Positions 1 through 62,222 of a stretch of 64,000 nt of DNA are shown piece by piece; positions within the stretch are counted from its first letter, which is position 1, and each line of letters opens with the position of its first letter. This DNA is from Phycisphaerae bacterium (GTDB taxonomy: Bacteria; Planctomycetota; Phycisphaerae; UBA1845): positions 1,312,001 through 1,376,000 of the forward strand of contig CAXXGO010000001.1 in NCBI GenBank assembly GCA_963666835.2. Direction: 5' to 3'. The translations under genes were made by a program, and so were the position numbers. Under the pieces are notes generated by a model. It was given only the letters and a program-made list of their open reading frames with translations. It had not been told where the DNA came from and ran no database searches.

Positions 1-144
1 AACTTCCTTGACCACATCGAGAACCGCCTCGGCCTCGAATGGCGAACAATGGAGTCCGTGCTTGATTTCGTGCAAAAACTTGGCATCCAGTGTCTTCGAG
101 TCAAGACGCTCAAGCCTCTCCTTCTTCTTGTTCCGCAGCCCCAT
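1..144 (-). CDS. DUF1670-like protein A, N-terminal part (partial)
   Basis: Same sequence as the 5' end of 7342..8193 (MGLRNKKKERLERLDSK...). Confidence 0.85.
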   Translation of the reverse strand, partial: MGLRNKKKERLERLDSKTLDAKFLHEIKHGLHCSPFEAEAVLDVVKEV

Positions 145-209
145 GCGTAGTCCTCCCAAGTCCCGAAGTCCGTTACCAAGGTACCCGGGTGGACATATGT
201 CAGGAAGGT
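1..209 (-). mobile_element. Left end of a second copy of the DUF1670-pair insertion element (truncated by window edge)
   Basis: 1-209 is the reverse complement of 7277-7485; ORFs 8..211(+) and 7275..7478(-) translate identically; sub-terminal IR at 188-202, CT core (AG on +) at 210-211. Confidence 0.9.
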
Positions 210-211
210 AG

Positions 212-423
212 GCGTTACGTCCCGCAGCCCAGGGTTGCCGCGGAGCGGCCACCCTGGAGTGACGGTCACATCAAAGACCAACCCTGACGGGGTTGCGACA
301 CTGTTCAACCCACTTCGAGGTTGGTCTGGGAAGGGGCTTTGTGACTCAGGGTGGCACTGCGTGGCTGCGCCGCTTCGTTTACCCTGGGCCTTGTTGTGAA
401 ACACCTTTGGCGTATGTTCGGAA
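212..423. repeat. REP-like palindromic cluster (ACCCTGGGC / AACGCCTTCGGCGT family), including an empty paralogous target site at 391-423
   Basis: 282-423 is near-identical to 7153-7276 joined to 9190-9206; a further partial copy lies at about 47067-47159. Confidence 0.8.
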
Positions 424-1380: not shown

Positions 1381-2439
1381 ATGGTAGCGACTGAGACGAA
1401 GATCGTGGCCGCATGTTGCAGTGTTTTGATGATGCTCCCGTCATGGGCATGGGCGCAGCTCTACGCCCCACCGGACGCGACGGTTGACCTTCCGGTGCAG
1501 GTCGTACAGAGCGCCCAGAATCGCACGCCCGAGGAGATACGAGCGTGGGCGTTTACGGACGAGTATGTTCTGCAGTACCTAGTCAGCAACGCGTATTCGA
1601 TCGGCACGTTCGAGGCGATGTGGCCCGCAGGTGATCCGGACATTCACGCGATGATCGTTGAGCCGCCGGACTACCCGGGACAGATTGTGTTGATCGACTC
1701 GACGGTGGACCCCGAGGAGGCGGAGGAACTACCGGTGGTAGATACTGGCACGTTCACCGAGTTTGCCCGCTACGCAGCTGACAATGTCGCCGTGGGTGTC
1801 AGCTTCGTAGCAGGGACTTTTAGCCGGTCGGGCAGTGAACTGGTTGTTGTGGGACTCGAATTGGCGGTGGTCGTCGAGGACGCGGACCTACCGGAGCCCA
1901 TTGTAGTGAGGACGTTTCGGTCATTGGATGTCATTCCTGATGAAGACTTGGCGCACGCGACGGCTTATCGCTACGCTGTACTGAGCGCGAACCACTCGTC
2001 GGGGAGCGGTGGAAAGGACGCACTCGTTCAACGCACGCACCCCGCTATGATGGCTGAGCCGGAAGGCAACAACACGCCGGCACGCGACAACTGCGGGTGT
2101 TTCATGACGCTTCGGCACAGTCTCCAGGAAGCGCAGGATGAACGAAACAGGGATATCGCCAGTCTTCTGGGCACATATACGGGCTTAATCATAGGGGCCG
2201 TTGCTGCTTGCTTGGCGTTCCATTTCTTCGCAGCCACATGCGTTGGGCTCACTGTCGGCTCGCTTTTGACTGTGGCCTCGATCGAGTTTGAGATGATAGA
2301 CACTGCGTATGTGCACACATGCGATAGGCATCGGGATCTTTACGACGCGTGTTGCGACAGGACGGGTTGTGTTTGCCCAGGGTTGCCATGTTTTGGACAG
2401 GGCGATAGAATCCCGGAGGGCGCACTGATTGCAGACTGA
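1381..2439 (+). CDS. Secreted hypothetical protein with C-terminal hydrophobic hairpin and Cys-rich tail
   Basis: AGGAG RBS before ATG 1381; signal peptide ending AWA-Q; C-terminal CCDRTGCVC. Confidence 0.7.
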   Translation: MVATETKIVAACCSVLMMLPSWAWAQLYAPPDATVDLPVQVVQSAQNRTPEEIRAWAFTDEYVLQYLVSNAYSIGTFEAMWPAGDPDIHAMIVEPPDYPGQIVLIDSTVDPEEAEELPVVDTGTFTEFARYAADNVAVGVSFVAGTFSRSGSELVVVGLELAVVVEDADLPEPIVVRTFRSLDVIPDEDLAHATAYRYAVLSANHSSGSGGKDALVQRTHPAMMAEPEGNNTPARDNCGCFMTLRHSLQEAQDERNRDIASLLGTYTGLIIGAVAACLAFHFFAATCVGLTVGSLLTVASIEFEMIDTAYVHTCDRHRDLYDACCDRTGCVCPGLPCFGQGDRIPEGALIAD

Positions 2440-2440
2440 T

Positions 2441-3385
2441 ATGTCAACATCGAAGGGTCCGAGTACTCGCCGCAGGCGGTCGCGGATCGCGACGTTTTTC
2501 GTTAACGTGGTCACTCAGGGCGCCGGGCTGCCTTGGGCGGTCCTCAGAATGCACGTGCTTCGCGATTACTTGGGGATAGTGTGTTTGTTTGTTCTTGGAT
2601 TCGGAAGCTTGGTCTTTGCGGCAAGCTCGGCATGGCCGAGAGGGTCTGCGGCTCTCTATCTGGGAACGGTCGTTTATGGGGGATTCGCTGCGTTGGGATT
2701 GCGCCGCTCCTGCATTGAGGTTCAGCTGAAGCGAGAGGTCGCAAGCATGGGAAACGCTGCTTGCCTTGAGTGCGGGCGTCGGCTTATTGAGAGAAACGGC
2801 CAATGTCCGGCGTGCGGATGGGAATACGAAGATGTCGGCGAAGTAACCAAGTTCTGGGCTGAATGGGAGCCGTGTGCTGGTCTGTTGTACAGGATATCCG
2901 GGGGGCGCAGAGCGGATTGCATGCAGCCCGGCCGAGTGAAACCGGCTCTTTTGACCAGGCTCCGCATGCGTTTCGAGGTGCTCTTCATTGTTTGCGGTGT
3001 GATGATTGGGGGCGTTGTTTTGGTGTACGGTCGCTGTCTGCAAGGCGCAGCGTCGTTATCGGCGTTGTTGTGGCCTTACCTTGTCGCCGTGTTCGCCTTG
3101 GTTGTCGTGCTTAGTCTCGGTTGCCGGTTCGCAGAACGGCGCCTCAAACGTGACGTGGTCGGTAAGGACAACGCAGCCTGCTTCGAGTGCGGGTACTGGC
3201 TCACCGAGCCGACCGGCCGTTGCCCGGAGTGTGGTTGGGCGTACGAGAGTCTTGAAGATGTTGTGCGGTTTTGGAGCGAATGGCAGCCGTTCCGGCGCTT
3301 TCCGCGGCTACGGAAGCAGAAGGCGGTGGAGGCCGAAGGTTCGGGTGATCCTGGCTCTTCGAAGGAGGTGTCAGCGCCCGAGTGA
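2441..3385 (+). CDS. Membrane protein with two TM-pair + CxxC-x10-CxxC zinc-ribbon modules
   Basis: CLECG...CPACGWEYE and CFECG...CPECGWAYE; starts immediately after upstream stop. Confidence 0.75.
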   Translation: MSTSKGPSTRRRRSRIATFFVNVVTQGAGLPWAVLRMHVLRDYLGIVCLFVLGFGSLVFAASSAWPRGSAALYLGTVVYGGFAALGLRRSCIEVQLKREVASMGNAACLECGRRLIERNGQCPACGWEYEDVGEVTKFWAEWEPCAGLLYRISGGRRADCMQPGRVKPALLTRLRMRFEVLFIVCGVMIGGVVLVYGRCLQGAASLSALLWPYLVAVFALVVVLSLGCRFAERRLKRDVVGKDNAACFECGYWLTEPTGRCPECGWAYESLEDVVRFWSEWQPFRRFPRLRKQKAVEAEGSGDPGSSKEVSAPE

Positions 3386-3626
3386 CACGAGCCGGACATA
3401 TTGGGTGCCCGCGGGGCGCCCCGTTTCTCACATGGCATGGGGCGGGGCGCCCGCGCGGTTGCACCGGGTTTCGTTCTCTGAACCAGCGGTACGACGCGTA
3501 AGGGGTGGACCGGCCCTTCCTCACAGGCTGCCTCAGGTTATCGGATCTGGAATTGCAGCGCAGCTCGCAGAAAATCGTAGCCGGATATTGGGCATGCTGC
3601 AATATCTACAAATGTTGTGATGAGCC

Positions 3627-4619
3627 ATGTTGGTGATGAGCCACTGTGAGATGCTTCCTGGCATTGTCGTCAGAATAGGTCGCCGTTTCGGGCTCTTGGG
3701 GTTGGCCTCGATGGCCGCGCCGTTCCTCGTTGTCTTCTGGGCGGGCTGGTACGTTGATTTTTCTGTGGGAGGGGCAACGCGTCCATTTGGGCTCTTTGTG
3801 GGCTGTGCCATTGTTTGTGTCATCGCATTCGCCGCTATGGTGTCAGTGTGGCAAATGCGGGTCGAGACGCGGCTACATTGCGACGTGGCGAGCAAGGGCT
3901 TTGCCGTGTGCTTTGAGTGCGGGCATCGGCTCGCCGGGAGCGGCGGGCATTGTCCCAAATGTGACTGGGAGTATGACGATATCGAGCAGGTTGTCAGTTG
4001 CTGGGCAAACTGGAAGCCGTCCGAGTATCTGTTTCGCAGGACGAGCGTAGAGGGTACGGACGCGCCGGTTGCCGTTGCGGGGGCGCGAAGCGCCGATGGG
4101 TCGATTATCGACTGCAACGGACCCGGTGTAGTAACGAGCGGTCGCGTGCTGCAGAAACTCGGTAGCCCGCTGATTCTGAACAGGATTCTGAACCGCCACG
4201 ACGCGCTCGGCCTGATAGCGTTTCTCTCAGTCGTCGGCGTCTATATGGTGCATGTCTGGAACGTGCCGGGCTCAGGTACGCCTTCATTAAGCAGGATGTT
4301 CGGTTATATTGCGGCCGGATTGGGCACCACCGTTCTATGCAAGGTGTTTCGCTTGTTCGCGGAGCAGCGGCTGAAACGCGATGTGGCCGGTAAGAACAAC
4401 GCTGCGTGCTTCGGATGCGGCTACTGGCTCACGGAGCCGAGTGGGCGGTGTCCGGAGTGTGGTTGGGCGTACGAGAGTCTTGAAGAGGTCAGAGGGTCCT
4501 GGACGGAGTGGCAACCGTGTTGGTACTTTCTCAGCCGAAGGAACAGGAGGCGGCAAGGCGCCGGCGATACGCTGGACCAAGACGGCGCGGATTCGGCGGC
4601 AACGGCCGATCAGCGCTGA
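3627..4619 (+). CDS. Paralogous membrane protein with two zinc-ribbon modules
   Basis: CFECG...CPKCDWEYD and CFGCG...CPECGWAYE; start codon uncertain. Confidence 0.75.
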   Translation: MLVMSHCEMLPGIVVRIGRRFGLLGLASMAAPFLVVFWAGWYVDFSVGGATRPFGLFVGCAIVCVIAFAAMVSVWQMRVETRLHCDVASKGFAVCFECGHRLAGSGGHCPKCDWEYDDIEQVVSCWANWKPSEYLFRRTSVEGTDAPVAVAGARSADGSIIDCNGPGVVTSGRVLQKLGSPLILNRILNRHDALGLIAFLSVVGVYMVHVWNVPGSGTPSLSRMFGYIAAGLGTTVLCKVFRLFAEQRLKRDVAGKNNAACFGCGYWLTEPSGRCPECGWAYESLEEVRGSWTEWQPCWYFLSRRNRRRQGAGDTLDQDGADSAATADQR

Positions 4620-4622
4620 CCG

Positions 4623-5315
4623 GTGCAGGCTACCGGCCGACAGCTTGTAACGGGACTATGCGTCGTGGACTCTACTGGTCATGCCGAATCACAGCTTCTT
4701 GCGGATGAATTGGTGTGCGCGGAGTGCGGATACGACCTGCGCGGGCTTCCCGGCGATCCGGTGCAGTGTTCGGAATGTGGCAGGACATGCCCGATCCGGG
4801 AACTGCGCGTGAACGCCGCCGAGATTCAGAAGGAGCTACGCAGGCTGGAGACCTTGCCGACAGCCTGCGTGGCCTCCTTTCTGGTGATGATCTTGGCGCT
4901 CGGTTGGGCTTGGTGGACGGGACGATCGGCATTCGGCGTACCGGTGGTTGTCGCTCTTGCGGGGTATTGGCTGCTGTTGGTACACAGATTCGCGGCGGTT
5001 ATTGAATGGGAGGTCGGATGGATACGGGTGTTGCTCTTGTTCCATATTACCGGGTTGGTTGGCGCGGTCTTGCTTGGGACGATCTGGTTCGCCGGTGTTA
5101 TACTGTTGATCCACTGCACCGGCGGGCCGTCATTCTGTGACGCGGCGATTCACCTGATTGTCATGGCCATGGCTGTTTCGGTCGCGGGACTGTTCACGGT
5201 GGTTCGACTGCTGAACCGAAGAGCTCGGATCGCGCAAAGGAAGCTGCAACACCGTCTGGCCATCCGACTCGCCCAGCTCAACCGAGGGGCCAATCGTCCT
5301 TTGATTAACATTTGA
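4623..5315 (+). CDS. Membrane protein with N-terminal zinc ribbon
   Basis: CAECGYDLRG...CSECG followed by about four hydrophobic segments. Confidence 0.7.
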   Translation: MQATGRQLVTGLCVVDSTGHAESQLLADELVCAECGYDLRGLPGDPVQCSECGRTCPIRELRVNAAEIQKELRRLETLPTACVASFLVMILALGWAWWTGRSAFGVPVVVALAGYWLLLVHRFAAVIEWEVGWIRVLLLFHITGLVGAVLLGTIWFAGVILLIHCTGGPSFCDAAIHLIVMAMAVSVAGLFTVVRLLNRRARIAQRKLQHRLAIRLAQLNRGANRPLINI

Positions 5316-5382
5316 TGCGGCTAAAGTCAGTCCTGCAGCGTTTGGTCTCCTGCCTCGGCTGTGCCGCACAAAGCTGTCAACA

Positions 5383-5918
5383 GGGTGGCATGGGCCAACT
5401 TGTTGGCTTGTGGGATCGCGCCACGCGTTCCCGGGGGTGAACCGCGGTCGCAACTTGGCGACAGGTCTTGTGCCTCGATCGTGCCCGACACCCGTGGACG
5501 CTGCGCTACAAAGGGGCCGTCGTAATCAGTACGGCAAGCGCGAGCGACTCGCCCTTGGTCGATATGCAGTCCCTTTAGGGACGTGGGCATGTAGCCACGG
5601 GTGGAGCGTAGCGGAACCCGTGGGCGAGGTTTGCCTCCCAAGCCCGCCCGTCCCGAAGGGCTGGCGGACGGTTACCGCGAATCACGCGAAGATCTGGCGG
5701 AATAGCGAAGTGTCGGCAATACGGCACTATCGACCCAGGGGCAAGCTGAAAGCGTCCATGCCGAAGCGCGTAATCTGGCGGTGTGCGGCGGAATGGCTTG
5801 CGCGCGAGCTACGCTATGCCCATGCCACGCGCCATGGCAGGTCTCGTTCCTCGACCGTGCCCTACGAGGGACCGACGCAAGCTCCGAACGGGTGGCCCGT
5901 GGCTTTAGCCGTGGGGGA
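5383..5918. repeat. Intergenic mosaic of several REP-like families
   Basis: Units matching 13165-13200 (inverted), 1212-1243, 911-940, 434-533 and 7122-7152. Confidence 0.7.
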
Positions 5919-5948
5919 CGCCCTCCGAGGGACTGAGGGGAGCCCGGG

Positions 5949-6896
5949 TCATCCGAAGCTGGCTGCTATTATGACGATGTAGATGCCGATGAATGGCGGG
6001 ACGACGAAGATCAGAGCTGCGAGCGTGAGCCAGAGCAGGGGCACGGACACGGCAATCAACGTCGCCCGCCTCCTGACGCGCGGCATAGCTCTTTGGGCAG
6101 TTCGCACGAGGTTCACCCACCAGGTGAACGCCACCATCCCGGCTGACAGGATGATCATCAGCCACCGGAGTTCCCAGATCTCCGCGCATGTCCAACGCCA
6201 GGATGTTCCATAGTATGGTTTGTACAACAGAACGGTGGTCGACAGCATCATGAGGACCAGGATTGCGAATGCCGCCAGCGGGCCGCAAGCGTAGTAGCTC
6301 AGCGTGCTTGCGGCGTTCTGCCGGGCAAGTGGCACGTTCCGGGGCCGGAAAAAGTCGCTGGGCACCCCGGTGGCGGCGATCAGAAAGAACAGCATGAGAG
6401 CCAGCCCAATCGCCAGCGGCCAGCCGGCTGTACAGGCATAGTCCCACAACAACGGCGGTATGGGGCCGCGATGGATCAGCTCGCGAAGCGGATCTCCCAC
6501 GACCTTCGGAGCCCGGGCGATGGCGGAGGTAACCACGACCGCCGTCACCGGCACGAAGACGTGCGCAATCGTGACCCATCGGAAGCTCTGAGCGTCTGCG
6601 CGGCTGACCGGGCGAATGCACTCCTCGCTGAAGCGCTGGTTCCGGAATGTCACCATCCAGACCGTGCGCCAGTAGCTCTTGAGGAGCCCGCGCTCTCGGC
6701 GGTGGACCCAAGGTATCCCCGACTCTGTCGACCGTAGGTTTTCCAGGGAGTGGCCGCACTCGGGGCAGCGGTTGCTGACGACCCCGCGCAGGTCATAGGT
6801 GCATTCCGAGCAGTAGACTCCAGGCTCAATTGCCGGCAGAGCGTTGGGTTGCTCATTGTCCGGTGCGTCGTTAGCGATAACAGATTCGTCTGCCAT
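5949..6896 (-). CDS. Membrane protein with N-terminal zinc ribbon
   Basis: CSECTYDLRG...CPECG then multiple TM segments; 315 aa. Confidence 0.75.
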   Translation of the reverse strand: MADESVIANDAPDNEQPNALPAIEPGVYCSECTYDLRGVVSNRCPECGHSLENLRSTESGIPWVHRRERGLLKSYWRTVWMVTFRNQRFSEECIRPVSRADAQSFRWVTIAHVFVPVTAVVVTSAIARAPKVVGDPLRELIHRGPIPPLLWDYACTAGWPLAIGLALMLFFLIAATGVPSDFFRPRNVPLARQNAASTLSYYACGPLAAFAILVLMMLSTTVLLYKPYYGTSWRWTCAEIWELRWLMIILSAGMVAFTWWVNLVRTAQRAMPRVRRRATLIAVSVPLLWLTLAALIFVVPPFIGIYIVIIAASFG

Positions 6897-7041: not shown

Positions 7042-7276
7042 CGGCAGGTCTCGTGCCTCGACCATGCCCTACGTAGCTGCACTGCTCAAGAGTAGTGGCA
7101 CACCCGAGAACCCAGGTGTGGACGGGTGGCCCATGGCTTTAGCCGTGGGGGACCTGACGGGGTTGCGACGCTGTTCGACCCACTTCGGGGTTGGTCTGGG
7201 AAGGGGCTTTGTGACCCAGGGTGGCACTGCGCGGCTGCGCCGCTTCGTTTACCCTGGGCTTTGTTGTGAAACGCCT
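7042..7276. repeat. REP mosaic; the last unit is interrupted by the DUF1670 element
   Basis: Units at 7042-7072, 7079-7102, 7122-7152 and 7153-7276; sequence resumes at 9190 (TCGGCGTATGTTCGGAA). Confidence 0.8.
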
Positions 7277-7341
7277 ACCTTCCTGACATATGTCCACCCG
7301 GGTACCTTGGTAACGGACTTCGGGACTTGGGAGGACTACGC

Positions 7342-8193
7342 ATGGGGCTGCGGAACAAGAAGAAGGAGAGGCTTGAGCGTCTTGACTCGAAGACACTGGA
7401 TGCCAAGTTTTTGCACGAAATCAAGCACGGACTCCATTGTTCGCCATTCGAGGCCGAGGCGGTTCTCGATGTGGTCAAGGAAGTTTACTTCCCGTACCTC
7501 GATGAACACGCCGGCAAGGCCCCACCTGGCAAGATTGGCTTGGTCGTCGTCGACGCCGACGAGCCTGCCGGGAAACCCGTCTGCGAATGCCAGAAGCAGA
7601 ACGTGTGCCTGACAATCCACCGAGGTGCAGAGGATGATCGACTTCTGGAGGAGGAGGGGCCGGTCGGCTTTCGACAAGCCCGCATCCCACCGCTTTGCCA
7701 AGAAGCCCTGAGTCAAGGTGGGCTGCTCACGCGCGAAGATCTGGCCTACCGGATGTTCTTTGTTACGCCACGAACCATTACGCGCGATTTGAACGCTCTC
7801 CGGAGTGCGTATCCCGGGGTGCTTATTCCTCTGCGAGGAATCGTACACGATCTTGGTCCCGTGTTGACTCATCGCAGCCAAATCGTGCGTTTGGCTCTGG
7901 AGGGAAAGACGACCTCACAGATCTGCACCATGCTTCGCCATTCACCGGCGGCTGTAGCGAACTACGTCTCGACATTCACCCGTTGTGCGCAGTTGGCAAA
8001 GAAAGGTATGCAGGTCGGGCAAATCGCCTTCCTTCTGCGGAGAGGCAAGCGGTTGGTACAACAGTACCTTGATCTCCTCGACGAATGCGCGGTCGACAAG
8101 AACATGGGCTATCACCTGGAAGAACTGATGCGCCTGGGTTGTTGTGGCGGGGGGAAAAAGGAGCTCGGTGAAGAGGGAAGATCCGATGGGTAA
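7342..8193 (+). CDS. DUF1670-like protein A
   Basis: GGAGG RBS; motifs EALSQGGLLTREDLA, RGIVHDLGPVLTHR and HSPAAVANY, recalled as typical of DUF1670. Confidence 0.8.
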   Translation: MGLRNKKKERLERLDSKTLDAKFLHEIKHGLHCSPFEAEAVLDVVKEVYFPYLDEHAGKAPPGKIGLVVVDADEPAGKPVCECQKQNVCLTIHRGAEDDRLLEEEGPVGFRQARIPPLCQEALSQGGLLTREDLAYRMFFVTPRTITRDLNALRSAYPGVLIPLRGIVHDLGPVLTHRSQIVRLALEGKTTSQICTMLRHSPAAVANYVSTFTRCAQLAKKGMQVGQIAFLLRRGKRLVQQYLDLLDECAVDKNMGYHLEELMRLGCCGGGKKELGEEGRSDG

Positions 8194-8959
8194 GCCGCGA
8201 GACACCAACAGCAGAAGATACAGTCCCCTGCAGGCGAAAACGCTGAGAAACGTGTTGGCTCACCGCATCGAAACGGAGTTTCCACGCATAGGCGGCCCAC
8301 GGATTCGCAACCTGTGCGCAGAGATGATCCTTGAGGTCATCGGTGCCCACGTTCTCCCGAAGGAGCATATCCAACATGGTCAGATACTCTGGATGGCGAT
8401 CAGCAGCGCAGATCCCCCGAGTCAGCGTCGACGGATTGAGGATACCGATCTGCTTCCGGTGGTCTTGGACGTGAGTACCTTCGAGGATATCGAGATGCGT
8501 TTGCAGAAGAAGGGACGTGGAGAGTTGCTCTTACAAAAGAGCTTGAGGTTATGCCGACAGGCGTACGAACAAGGGGGCGTTCTGTCCAACTCTGATCTCT
8601 CGGAGTTGTTAGCAGTCAATGCGTCGGACGTCTCGCGATTGTTGGCGGCGTACGAACGCGAGACCGGTCAGATCGTCCCACGTCGCGCTACTGTCCACGA
8701 TGTCGGCACAGGGCTTACGCACAAACGGATCATCTGTTTCAAACATTACGCAGAAGGCAAAGCGGCTAACGAAGTGGCTCGGGAAACGTACCACAGCCTT
8801 GAGGCTGTGGATCGTTACCTGGGCCAGTACGATCGCGTCCGCCACTGCCATCTTCAGGGGCTGACGGCAAAGGAGACAGCCCATGCTTTAGGTTGCAGCA
8901 TCTTCCTGGTTCAGGAGTACCTGGAGATCGATCATGAGTTGGAGGGCCAGCATGCTTGA
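8186..8959 (+). CDS. DUF1670-like protein B
   Basis: Overlaps gene A stop; motifs QAYEQGGVLSNSDLS, RATVHDVGTGLTHKRII and HSLEAVDRY. Confidence 0.8.
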   Translation: MGKPRDTNSRRYSPLQAKTLRNVLAHRIETEFPRIGGPRIRNLCAEMILEVIGAHVLPKEHIQHGQILWMAISSADPPSQRRRIEDTDLLPVVLDVSTFEDIEMRLQKKGRGELLLQKSLRLCRQAYEQGGVLSNSDLSELLAVNASDVSRLLAAYERETGQIVPRRATVHDVGTGLTHKRIICFKHYAEGKAANEVARETYHSLEAVDRYLGQYDRVRHCHLQGLTAKETAHALGCSIFLVQEYLEIDHELEGQHA

Positions 8960-9168
8960 CTCGATGGCACAGCACGTCAGACTTGTGTGTGCTGGTCGAG
9001 AGGACAGGGCTCTGCTGAGGAGCACCCCGAGCGCTCGTACCAGTGCCGGGACAGGCGCGGGAGTCTGCATGCACGGCGGGCTCTCGCTCTCCCTGGCCTG
9101 TTCTGGCTCCCAAGCGACAAACCTTGGGGGTCTGGGGGCAAAGCCCCCGGTGATCGCCACACGGTCGC
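8960..9168 (+). ncRNA. Candidate structured non-coding RNA in the element's right end
   Basis: Consecutive stem-loops read by eye: CTCGA...TCGAG (8960-9000), AGGACAGG...CCTGTTCT, GCGGGAGTC...GGCTCTCGC, CCCAAG...CTTGGG and GGGGGC-AAA-GCCCCC; expression unknown. Confidence 0.35.
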
Positions 9169-9290
9169 GGTGGACATATGTCACTATCTTCGGCGTATGT
9201 TCGGAAGATGTACGTCGCACGAAGACCAGCGGCAGGTCTCGTTCCTCGACCATGCCCTACGAGGGGAAGCAGAAGCGCGCTTGCGAGCGG

Positions 9291-43761: not shown

Positions 43762-43835
43762 GGGCGATTAGCTCAGTTGGCCAGAGCGCCTGCTCGACAC
43801 GCAGGAGGTCACAGGTTCAAGTCCTGTATCGCCCA
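43762..43835 (+). tRNA. tRNA-Val(GAC)
   Basis: Cloverleaf: GGGCGAT/ATCGCCC acceptor stem, GCTC/GAGC D stem, CCTGC-TCGACAC-GCAGG anticodon arm, TTCAAGT T loop; CCA not encoded. Confidence 0.95.
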
Positions 43836-44130
43836 GTTGTAAACCGCTTGTGAGGCAAGCACTTATGGCGGTTTTCTCATGCGCACTTGCTTTCCGGGAC
43901 TAGGCGCTTGAGGTTTCCATACCAGGCGTTCGGACCGCGTTTTCTGGTCCGTAGCGCGCGTGTTCTGCGGACCATTCGTGCGCTCGCCGCCTGCTGGTAT
44001 TAGCAGGCGTTTCTAGGCAATCGACTTCGCATCACCCGCTGGCCGTTCGCGACCGCCACGAGCGGCCAAACCGCCACTGCAACGGTCAACGCTGGGATCG
44101 GACGATTGGCGACGTTGCGTGCTTCCCTGC

Positions 44131-46574: not shown

Positions 46575-46626
46575 TGCTCGACACGCAGGAGGTCACAGGT
46601 TCAAGTCCTGTATCGCCCAGTTGTAA
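46575..46626 (+). repeat. attR-like duplicate of tRNA-Val 3' half
   Basis: Identical to 43791-43842. Confidence 0.9.
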
Positions 46627-46669
46627 CCCCTTTCGAATAAAGCACTTATCGTGGGTTGGGCTCTGCTTA

Positions 46670-58859: not shown

Positions 58860-61800
58860 TTATTCGACGCACCCAAGCACACTGTCGCAGGTCATGCCGG
58901 CCGGGCAGGCCGTGTGGTCGGGAGTGTTCAAGCACGTATCTCCCTCCTCCCAGCAGGCGTCTATCGTGCAATCAACGCCGTCGTCACAGTCGACCAGCGT
59001 GCCGCTTTGGCAGGTCTGATTCGCATCGCACGTTTCCAGGCCGTTACAGAATGCCCCGTCGTCGCAATGAGTGTCGCTTTCGCACTCGACGCACCCATAC
59101 GTCGTGCTGCAGATCCAATCCCCCAGGCACATCCAGTCGCGAGGGACGTTGTAGCACACGTCCGCCGTTGTATAGCAGGCGTCTTCCGTGCATGCGATGC
59201 CGTCGTCGCAGGTCTCGGGCGGCCCGGACTGGCAGTCAAGAGCCAGATCGCAGTACTCCACACCGTCGCAGAGCACGTCGTTGTCACATGACTCGTGATC
59301 GAGGGTGTGCTCACAGGTGTTCGTGGCCAGGTTACACGTGTCCACCGTGCAGCCTACCTCATCATCACAGTGGGCGTCGTTATAGCACTCGACACAGCCG
59401 AGCGTCGTGCTGCAAACGGAATCCCCGGCGCACAGCCAGTCGCAGGGTACATTGTAGCACACGTCCATTGTTGAATAGCAGGCGTCTTGCGTGCACTCGA
59501 TGCCGTCGTCGCAGGTTTCGGGAGGGCCGGACTGACAGTCAAGCGCCGGATCGCAGTACTCCACACCGTCGCACAGCACGTCGTTGTCACATGACGCGTG
59601 ATCGAGAACATGCTCGCAGGTGTTCGTGGCCAGATTACACGTGTCGACCGTGCAGCCGACGCCGTCATCGCAGTGACCGTCGCCGTAGCATTCAACGCAG
59701 CCGAGCGTGATACTGCAAACCCAATCCCCGGCGCACATCCAGTCGCGAGGCAGATTGTAGCACACGTCCTGCGTGGCATAGCAGGCGTCTTCCGTACACT
59801 CGATACCGTCGTCGCAGGTCTCGGGCGGGCCGGACTGACAGTCAAGAGCCGGATCGCAGAATTCCACGCCATCGCAGAGCACGTCATTGTCACACGATGC
59901 ATGATCGAGGGCATGTTCGCAGGTGTTCGTGGCCAGGTTACAGGTATCGACCGTGCAGCCGACCTCATCATCACAGTGAGCGTCGTTATAACACTCGACA
60001 CAGCCGAGCGTCGTGCTGCAAACGAAATCCCCGGCGCACAGCCAGTCGCAGGGCACATTGTAGCACACGTCCATTGTTGAATAGCAGGCGTCTTGTGTGC
60101 AGTCGATGCCGTCGTCGCAAGTCTCGGGTGGACCGGACTGGCAGTCTAGAGTCGGATCGCAGAATTCCACGCCGTCGCAGAGTACGTCGTTGTCACATGA
60201 CGCGTGATCGAGGGCATGCTCGCACGTGTTCGTCGCCAGATTACACGTGTCGACCGTGCAGCCGACCTCATCATCACAGTGGACGTCGCTGTCGCATTCG
60301 ACACATCCGTACGTCATACTGCAGATGAAATCCCCCTCGCACATCCAATCTCGCGGCAGGTTGTAGCACGTTCCCTGCGGTCCGTAGCAGGCGTCTTCGG
60401 TGCACTCGATGCCGTCGTCGCAATCGATGGGGGTGCCGCTTTGGCACATGCCCATGGCGTCGCACGTTTCTTCACCGTTGCAGGTATCGCCGTCGTCGCA
60501 ATCCTCGTCGTCGTCGCACTCGATGCACCCGAGTGTCGTACTGCAGATCCAGTTCTCGGGGCACATCCAATCGCGAGGCACGTTGTAGCACACATCCGCC
60601 GTTGTATAGCAGGCGTCCTCCGTACACTCGATGCCGTCGTCGCAGGTTTCGGGCGGGCCGGACTGGCAATCGAGAGTCGGATCGCAGTATTCCACGCCGT
60701 CGCAGAGCACGTCGTTATCGCACGACGCATGATCGACGGCGTGCTCACAGGTGTTCGTAGCCGGATCACACGTGTCGACCGTACAGCCAACGGCGTCATC
60801 ACAATGGGCGTCGCTGTAGCACTCAACACAGCCGAGTGTCACACTGCAGACCCAATCCCCGGCGCACATCCAGTCGCGAGGCACGTTGTAGCACACGTCC
60901 TGCGTGGCATAGCAGGCGTCTTCCGTACATGCGATACCGTCATCGCAGGTCTCGGGCGGACCGGACTGACAATCAAGAGCCGGATCGCAGTACTCCACGC
61001 CGTCGCAGAATACCCCGTTGTCACACGATGCATGATCGAGGGCATGTTCGCAGGTGTTCGTGGCCAGGTTACACGTGTCGATCGTGCAGCCGACCCCATC
61101 ATTACAGTGAGTGTCGTTATAGCACTCGACACAGCCGAGCGTCGTGCTGCAAACGAAATCCCCGGCGCACAACCAGTCGCAGGGTATATTGTAGCACACA
61201 TCCGCCGTTGTATAGCAGGCGTCTTGAGTACAGTCGATGCCGTCGTCGCAGGTCTCGGGCGGGCCGGACTGGCAGTCGAGAGTCGGATCACAGAATTCCA
61301 CACCGTCACAGAGCACGTCGTTGTCGCATGACGCATGATCGAGCGCGTGCTCGCAGGTGTTCGTGGTCATATTACAGGTGTCGATCGTACAGCCGACCCC
61401 ATCATCACAGTGGGCGTCGCTGTCGCACTCGACGCATCCGTAAGTCACGCTGCAGATGAAATCGCCCTCACACATCCAATCTCGCGGCAGGTTGTAACAC
61501 GTTGCCTGCGGTCCGTAGCAGGCATCTTCCGTACACTCAATGTCATCGTCGCAATCGACGGCCGTGCCGGCTTGGCACATCCCACTCGCATCGCACGTTT
61601 CTTGGCCGTTACAGGCATAGTCGTCGTCGCAATCCTCGTCGTCGTCGCATTCGATGCACCCGAGCGTTGTGCTGCAGAACATACCTGTCGGGCACATCCA
61701 ATCGCGAGGCACGTTATAGCACACATCCGCCGTCGTATAGCAGGCGTCTTCGGTACACTCGATGCCGTCGTCGCACGTCTCGGGCACGCCGGCCTGGCAG

Positions 61801-62222
61801 GTGCCCTTAACGCACTGCTCAACACCGTTGCAGAACACCCCGTCGTCACATTCAAGGTCTACGTTGCAGTCGACGCAGCCGAATTCCGTACTGCACACCT
61901 GCTTGCTGGGGCATAGTGCGTCAACGGGTACATACACACAGAAGCCTTCAATCAGGTCGCAGATGTCTGTTGTGCAGGCAATGGAATCGTCGCAGTCTTT
62001 GTCCACTGCGCACTTCTCTGATGACTTACAATCGGAGGACACGACCGGGGCACCAGAGTCATCGGCGCCCGACAAGGTGGGCTCGGGGGAAGTTCTTCCG
62101 AGATCGGCTGCGACGACGATCGAAGTCACCGCAGTGAATATCGTCAGATACAGCATTATCGCGCATGCCCTGCGCCACCCATTTACATGATGTCGATCGC
62201 GTTCAATCGCTACGTTTTTCAT
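58860..62222 (-). CDS. Secreted Cys/Asp-rich tandem repeat protein
   Basis: GAGGAG RBS; CDDGxxCTxDxC repeats in 101-aa and 74-aa units. Confidence 0.88.
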   Translation of the reverse strand: MKNVAIERDRHHVNGWRRACAIMLYLTIFTAVTSIVVAADLGRTSPEPTLSGADDSGAPVVSSDCKSSEKCAVDKDCDDSIACTTDICDLIEGFCVYVPVDALCPSKQVCSTEFGCVDCNVDLECDDGVFCNGVEQCVKGTCQAGVPETCDDGIECTEDACYTTADVCYNVPRDWMCPTGMFCSTTLGCIECDDDEDCDDDYACNGQETCDASGMCQAGTAVDCDDDIECTEDACYGPQATCYNLPRDWMCEGDFICSVTYGCVECDSDAHCDDGVGCTIDTCNMTTNTCEHALDHASCDNDVLCDGVEFCDPTLDCQSGPPETCDDGIDCTQDACYTTADVCYNIPCDWLCAGDFVCSTTLGCVECYNDTHCNDGVGCTIDTCNLATNTCEHALDHASCDNGVFCDGVEYCDPALDCQSGPPETCDDGIACTEDACYATQDVCYNVPRDWMCAGDWVCSVTLGCVECYSDAHCDDAVGCTVDTCDPATNTCEHAVDHASCDNDVLCDGVEYCDPTLDCQSGPPETCDDGIECTEDACYTTADVCYNVPRDWMCPENWICSTTLGCIECDDDEDCDDGDTCNGEETCDAMGMCQSGTPIDCDDGIECTEDACYGPQGTCYNLPRDWMCEGDFICSMTYGCVECDSDVHCDDEVGCTVDTCNLATNTCEHALDHASCDNDVLCDGVEFCDPTLDCQSGPPETCDDGIDCTQDACYSTMDVCYNVPCDWLCAGDFVCSTTLGCVECYNDAHCDDEVGCTVDTCNLATNTCEHALDHASCDNDVLCDGVEFCDPALDCQSGPPETCDDGIECTEDACYATQDVCYNLPRDWMCAGDWVCSITLGCVECYGDGHCDDGVGCTVDTCNLATNTCEHVLDHASCDNDVLCDGVEYCDPALDCQSGPPETCDDGIECTQDACYSTMDVCYNVPCDWLCAGDSVCSTTLGCVECYNDAHCDDEVGCTVDTCNLATNTCEHTLDHESCDNDVLCDGVEYCDLALDCQSGPPETCDDGIACTEDACYTTADVCYNVPRDWMCLGDWICSTTYGCVECESDTHCDDGAFCNGLETCDANQTCQSGTLVDCDDGVDCTIDACWEEGDTCLNTPDHTACPAGMTCDSVLGCVE

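Follow-up and report, generated by a model that had tools for sequence, protein, structure and literature searches.

Insertion into REP sequences is a habit of at least five families of insertion sequences (PMC1525189). Members of the IS1111 group (ISEc11, ISPa11, IS4321) are described as having sub-terminal inverted repeats with extensions of 7 on the left and 3 on the right, a long downstream non-coding region, and specific targets that include REPs (PMC11187229). A guide RNA is known for IS1111 and for IS621 (PMC11187229, PMC11208160). In the IS110 group, IS621, ISPpu9 and ISPpu10 are reported to have REP targets entered at a fixed position, with a 2-nt core on both sides that is CT for IS621 and AG for ISPpu9 (PMC11208160, PMC12288879, PMC1525189). 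ISPpu9 also has an optional downstream RNA, Ssr9, which we liken to the RNA of the element below by description only. A third set, IS1397, ISKpn1, ISPsy8 and ISRm22, consists of DDE elements for which a protein-determined, palindromic REP site is described (PMC1525189).

Since REP targeting is already known, the new point of the locus presented here is that an active element does so with a protein for which no catalytic fold is known. Our analysis suggests that this element moves in an undescribed way, by a strand swap at a two-base match that it carries itself and with no guide RNA. The element is real, recently active, and site- and orientation-specific, and we think it probable that it is an insertion sequence that moves autonomously and belongs to an undescribed family.

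The element, its copies and their REP target

The window, by which we mean the whole 64,000-nucleotide stretch of DNA that was analysed (G000:C1:1312001-1376000, G000 being the host genome), holds copy 2 of the element and the left end of copy 1. The features are given below in window coordinates.

1..209, minus strand: left end of copy 1
210..235, minus strand: core, and left half of the REP arm into which copy 1 is inserted
381..414, plus strand: empty sister REP arm, of the same doublet as copy 1, with changes at 403 and 408
7251..7274, plus strand: left half of the interrupted REP arm (body and left hairpin arm)
7275..7276, plus strand: left CT (core)
7277..7283, plus strand: 7-nt left terminal extension
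7284..7298, plus strand: left sub-terminal inverted repeat, 15 bp, holding a 10-bp palindrome
7342..8193, plus strand: ORF A, DUF1670, 283 aa (Pfam E 1.8e-37)
8149..8159, plus strand: G6A5 slippery run at the end of ORF A
8186..8959, plus strand: ORF B, DUF1670, 257 aa (Pfam E 1.6e-49)
8956..8983, plus strand: predicted sigma70-type promoter of the right-end RNA, its -35 overlapping the ORF B stop
8987..9166, plus strand: structured non-coding RNA, about 180 nt
9169..9183, plus strand: right sub-terminal inverted repeat
9184..9187, plus strand: 4-nt right terminal extension (nnAT in relatives)
9188..9189, plus strand: right CT (core)
9190..9197, plus strand: right half of the interrupted REP hairpin

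Copy 2 reads as REP, CT (7275-7276), an element of 1911 bp (7277-9187), CT (9188-9189) and REP, exactly as an earlier, sequence-only reading of the window had proposed. Copy 1, on the minus strand with its core at 210-211, is identical to copy 2 over all 1911 bp, and its right flank, which lies in the previous window, continues CT-TCGGCGTA. When the element and one CT are removed from the site of copy 2, the resulting 33-mer differs from the sister REP at 391-423 at exactly two positions, 403 in the stem and 408 in the loop. BLAST found six full copies in G000, with 0-4 nt differences among them. All 7 left junctions (six full copies and one scar) come after AAYGCCT, and CT-WCGGCGTA comes next at all 10 right junctions, in agreement with the earlier observation that both copies lie at one CT of a REP hairpin. 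Alignment of the flanks of all copies shows that they are related, and that AACGC is part of the REP and not of the element.

In the 6.0 Mb of the genome there are 74 such REP arms, of which 7 are occupied and 67 are empty, and against this background the counts from the copies and the scar mean that junctions at the REP CT are not due to chance; the specific targeting of a multicopy REP that had been postulated is supported by the junction counts. Copy 1 does use the same AACGCCT site, but the different REP context ascribed to it was a misreading: the two contexts are the two arm types of one REP doublet, and in the doublet that holds copy 1 the opposite arm is the sister REP at 391-423. The idea that this mutated sister site is immune found no support. 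With 67 of 74 arms empty, including 27 with a perfect hairpin, a single empty variant is expected by chance and uninformative, so that immunity cannot be inferred from it. The empty arms carry CT in 51 cases and another dinucleotide in 16; none of these 16 non-CT variants is occupied in G000, an avoidance that is not significant (Fisher p 0.33). Occupied sites tolerate a C-to-T change in the stem and a change at +2.

Several remnants were also noted. A scar in a REP at G000:C6:739698-739761 consists of core, 7-nt left extension, one 12-bp palindrome, 4-nt right extension and core, the entire interior between the palindromes of both repeats being gone. At G000:C5:242181-242230 two right ends are joined head to head at a single palindrome and each keeps a REP flank of its own, an arrangement that fits the collapse of a doublet with both arms occupied. 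A solo 55-bp right end remains at a REP CT at G000:C6:1881239-1881293, the remainder having been deleted, and an isolated variant of the inverted repeat at G000:C6:208989 has no DUF1670 gene near. In a relic of a related lineage (L189, G000:C6:796100-796400), which sits in a different REP, a left-type end comes after the RNA, and in L105 both ends are left-type; these two suggest exchange at the repeat palindromes or, for L105, misassembly.

Elsewhere in the window, the interval between the copies (2429-6896) encodes a run of paralogous small membrane proteins that carry CxxC zinc-ribbon motifs, and has REP doublets in the gaps, and about nine 303-bp direct repeats form an array at 58952-61816. 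A 55-bp direct repeat resembling a tRNA 3' end (43791-43845 and 46575-46629) bounds a 2.8-kb stretch that is possibly a small integrated element.

Target symmetry and the two-nucleotide repeat

Scans for relatives gave 52 loci, and the best 80 of 409; a contig scan with the single protein as query gave no match, and the plasmid and phage collections gave no match. Across the 52 loci and the best 80 of 409 the layout is constant, core(2)-7 nt-IR-ORF A-ORF B-IR-4 nt-core(2), and pairing of the 7-nt left extension with the stretch that precedes the ORF A start is predicted in 91 of 116 loci. Among named homologues, the closest come from Phycisphaerae, and DUF1670 occurs in 3 of the 301 genomes of a phylum sample, G000 among them.

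Target symmetry was examined in 51 elements for which both ends and sufficient flank were present and the cores were equal, drawn from 76 distinct right ends; 7 elements with unequal cores, and those without a left end or flank, were left out. The target is a palindrome with arms of 5-6 bp and a 5-nt centre, and insertion occurs at the first two bases of the centre. These targets, whose classes include CGGAY-N5-RTCCG and GCCC-CTNCG-GGGC, are symmetric about +2, with 71-86% complementarity at -6..-2 and no other axis comparable. The predicted circle junction, in which 4+2+7 nt separate the two repeats, is likewise centred on +2, the same axis as the target. The arms pair above within-class shuffles (4.47 versus 3.94, n=30; 4.14 versus 2.54, n=21), and T-G exceeds C-A by 8 to 3, but kinship and the palindromic nature of REPs confound a hairpin-versus-duplex reading of these figures.

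For the dinucleotide itself, RNA-less elements were added and five loci with mis-called, cut or N-masked ends were dropped, giving 74 elements. The same dinucleotide stands on both sides in 64 of them, and ten different dinucleotides are seen. When two elements at different sites are at least 97% identical, their left cores agree in 18 of 19 pairs and their right cores in 11 of 12; at 93% identity or more the figures are 39 of 44 and 21 of 24, and in pairs under 72% identity the core is shared in 8%. By this comparison of sequences, the 2-nt repeat is lineage-specific. The core also appears to fix orientation: in the target family with centre TAAGT/ACTTA, seven sites hold TA-core elements and one a TC-core element in one direction, and two sites hold AC-core elements in the opposite direction, a class that has only these two members.

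The shared target family, which is AT-rich and was seen in the flanks of L094, L020, L087, L112, L123 and L143, is a conserved repeat of about 150 nt, possibly the end of an integrative element; by eye, L112 has an apparent serine recombinase gene on its other flank.

The two sides are unequal in 10 of the 74 elements, 9 of which differ at the second base only. Three of the unequal-core elements have seven perfectly paired arm positions, and in two of the ten the lineage core stands on the right side, not the left. L027, with CT on the left and CG on the right, is a hit in the reverse orientation, as in the reverse reading of the usual hairpin. A search for the circle junction found none in 143 loci, viral contigs and the contigs of four runs, contigs being prone to drop rare forms.

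Whether CT is a recombination core or a 2-bp duplication had been left open by the sequence-only reading, and the lineage link, the opposite-direction use and the unequal sides lean towards a core. Ordinary transposition with a 2-bp target-site duplication, in which the proteins would read the arms and an asymmetric centre and in this way yield a lineage dinucleotide and an orientation, we consider unlikely. It accommodates the 64 elements with equal sides. It also accommodates the centre positions +2 to +4, which track lineage about as well as the core, so that core matching alone cannot explain the centre; the centre must in part be read by the protein or reflect conserved target repeats, either of which could account for orientation too. 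However, the two copies of a duplication start out the same, whereas 10 of the 74 elements have differing sides, some of them where the arms pair well, and a duplication would sit off the symmetry axis of the target. As a rule, inverted repeats of DDE-type elements are not inset from the junctions, whereas those found here are inset by 7 and 4 nt, and the DUF1670 proteins have no DDE triad. Because the two sides are sometimes unequal, we favour a recombination core. A heteroduplex at a mismatched core would give unequal sides; such sides may also stem from chimeric assembly or from recombination between copies, the latter described for ISRm22 (PMC1525189).

The DUF1670 proteins and the right-end RNA

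Two DUF1670 proteins, ORF A and ORF B, with 26% mutual identity, are the only proteins that the element encodes. Up to E 1, Pfam matches both ORFs to DUF1670 and HTH models only. The DEDD RuvC (PF01548) and Tnp (PF02371) domains are absent from the ORFs in the same Pfam scan that finds both in a neighbouring IS110 element. No Pfam match was obtained to an RNase H-like DDE domain, the mark of DDE insertion sequences such as IS3 and IS630, and the alignment has no conserved acidic triad; an NCBIfam match to IS630 covers the HTH part only, at 12.7 bits versus a cutoff of 100. Neither DUF1670 alignment has a serine conserved at 90% or more, and Pfam gave no resolvase match. IS200/IS605 and RAYT elements are marked by an HUH domain and by the lack of a duplication and of inverted repeats; here Pfam gave no HUH match, and the element has inverted repeats and a dinucleotide on each side.

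Conservation among polar residues is seen at R121, Q129, D137, R167, H171, D172, H179, K180, H203, R210, Y211, R217 and Y245, with H179 and Y211 invariant. Tyrosine recombinases are marked by the lambda-integrase fold with R-K-H-R-H/W-Y; conserved R, H, K, H and Y are present here, and the lambda-integrase fold is not among the fold matches listed. Our guess from residue conservation is that the likeliest nucleophile would be Tyr211 (B numbering), acting with R167, H171, D172, H179, K180 and H203. A structure model of ORF B (pLDDT 91) matches helix-turn-helix units alone. Foldseek against the PDB and viral libraries gave no match at E 0.001, and the best VIA-align hits (Z 6.4 and 6.1) are all of HTH type, absence there not excluding a family. 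Winged helices of TopoVI-A/Spo11 (VIA-align Z 5-6) were not taken as homology. A PDB sequence search returned a 'CAP repeat' chain and one weak match to a small protein, and the ESM Atlas gave unnamed HTH clusters (best 0.81). We found no publication naming DUF1670 or PF07900 in a search that did not extend to ISfinder or subscription journals.

A G/A run at the end of ORF A is present in 99 of 100 loci and lies within the open B frame in 96; relative to A, the frame of B is +1 in 78, +2 in 18 and the same in 4. Single proteins with three DUF1670-like repeats (P0143, P0144, P0151, P0165; 930-952 aa) or two (P0226, P0248, P0250; 504-544 aa) occur naturally, which makes an A-B fusion produced by slippage at this run plausible. 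The predicted A-B complex scored 0.25.

That no catalytic fold was found in these proteins would suit a non-autonomous passenger, in which an IS1111-type transposase would act in trans on the ends and carry the DUF1670 genes along as cargo, an account we consider quite improbable. The end geometry is near that given for IS1111 (7 and 3 bp; PMC11187229), and an IS110-family element is present in G000. That element, however, has different ends. Within G000 the inverted repeat was not found outside DUF1670 copies and their remnants, apart from one unexplained variant site, and was seen with no other transposase, and the gene pair and the ends travel together in more than 100 loci from several phyla.

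The non-coding stretch between ORF B and the right repeat is about 225 nt long. The right end folds at z -3.8, and 30 of 41 pairs show two-sided changes across 45 sequences, a count that 0 of 500 shuffles reached and that is well above slid controls too. A promoter motif (TTGAY, 16 nt, a hexamer with A2 and T6) is in register in 63 of the 72 RNA-bearing loci; in this copy the -10 is weak, and the promoter was not called by a generic scan. The RNA is absent from Rfam, with three miRNA-level chance matches only, its pattern is absent from viral contigs, and among the papers listed none describes it in its title or the beginning of its abstract.

Structure, promoter and IS1111-like ends make an IS1111-like guide the obvious first idea. 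Column and diagonal covariation between RNA and target (a scan without a positive control) and word matches gave no guide-like signal, nor did single-column kappa (best 0.58), and in a gapless scan of 60,622 windows the best cognate match was 0.48 versus 0.34. A match to an RNA loop, apparent by eye in a few loci, failed across the whole set. Eight loci lack the RNA, with right ends of only 38-73 nt; at the hairpin position where the core is expected, seven of them have CT and one has CG. Four of the eight are 99-100% identical copies in another genome (G301), the sole DUF1670 copies there, and the RNA model found no match in that genome (150 of 5467 candidates scored).

The model matches 12 of 151 genomes of the phylum sample, several weakly, and five copies of an IS110-family element in G000. 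In this 1.83-kb element (L206, G000:C6:1566813-1568640, and four more copies) the same structured RNA lies about 230 nt beyond the stop codon of the transposase, on the opposite strand; the flanks of the element are not this REP. In other genomes the motif adjoins IS110, IS21 istB and rve-type genes, usually on the opposite strand (L198, L213, L214, L215, L216, L225, L227, L228; the IS1380-like and istB calls for L225 and L227 were made by eye).

We give very little credence to target choice by this RNA in the manner of the seek or bridge RNA of IS1111, which the layout, the strongly supported structure and the RNA's own promoter motif would favour, but which is opposed by the lack of a target-matching segment, by the sites of the RNA-less loci, the G301 copies included, and by the same RNA beside unrelated transposases. 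The right-end RNA is probably not a guide, and is best read as an optional passenger common to several IS families.

A proposed mechanism and its relation to known systems

On balance, we favour a protein-guided, core-matching recombinase of a new type, whose chemistry we infer. The DUF1670 proteins (A, B, or the slippage-made A-B fusion) would join the element ends into a circle with the junction IR-4-core-7-IR, and would bind the target palindrome through protein-DNA contacts. Target and circle sites would then be aligned on their common symmetry axis, two bases past the core start, with strand exchange at the 2-nt core requiring a match at least at the first base, and a non-palindromic core would select one of the two orientations. 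Because the REP hairpin is the matching palindrome here, copies would collect in REPs. The chances seem to us about even for a broader view, in which DUF1670 is a new recombinase class (tandem helix-turn-helix, with a His/Tyr active site) that reached an IS1111-like circle, a 2-nt core and orientation-specific palindrome landing independently and without RNA, with the right-end RNA hitch-hiking on several unrelated IS families.

The natural variants yield a testable rule, in which the arms of the palindrome are combined with a two-base match, and this match sets the orientation. If the proposal is true, a function would be assigned to DUF1670, a new recombination chemistry would be added, and a compact, directional, RNA-free integrase would be on offer. 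The passenger RNA, which crosses families and is absent from Rfam, is a second lead.

In serine integrases, IS607, and tyrosine recombinases with short first-exchange homology, a central dinucleotide sets orientation and the partner sites are dyad-aligned. The DUF1670 element resembles these systems in both respects, but differs in having no conserved serine, no recombinase fold match, and a core that lies off the axis. With IS1397, ISKpn1, ISPsy8 and ISRm22 it would share the protein-determined choice of a palindromic REP site, whereas those elements have 3-6 bp duplications and DDE transposases and the DUF1670 element has 2 nt, inset repeats and no DDE motif. The likeness to IS621 drawn in the sequence-only reading stands for layout and target type, not for machinery, as there are no IS110 domains and no guide RNA signal. 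Like IS621, ISPpu9 and ISPpu10, the element has a REP target, a fixed position and a two-sided 2-nt core; unlike them, it has a different protein, no bridge RNA, and 15-bp repeats. In contrast to IS1111, it has two DUF1670 genes in place of the DEDD RuvC and Tnp domains, and an RNA that is dispensable and not complementary to the target. It is like IS1111 in its sub-terminal repeats (here 15 bp) with asymmetric extensions (here 7 and 4 nt), its long downstream non-coding region, and its specific REP target.
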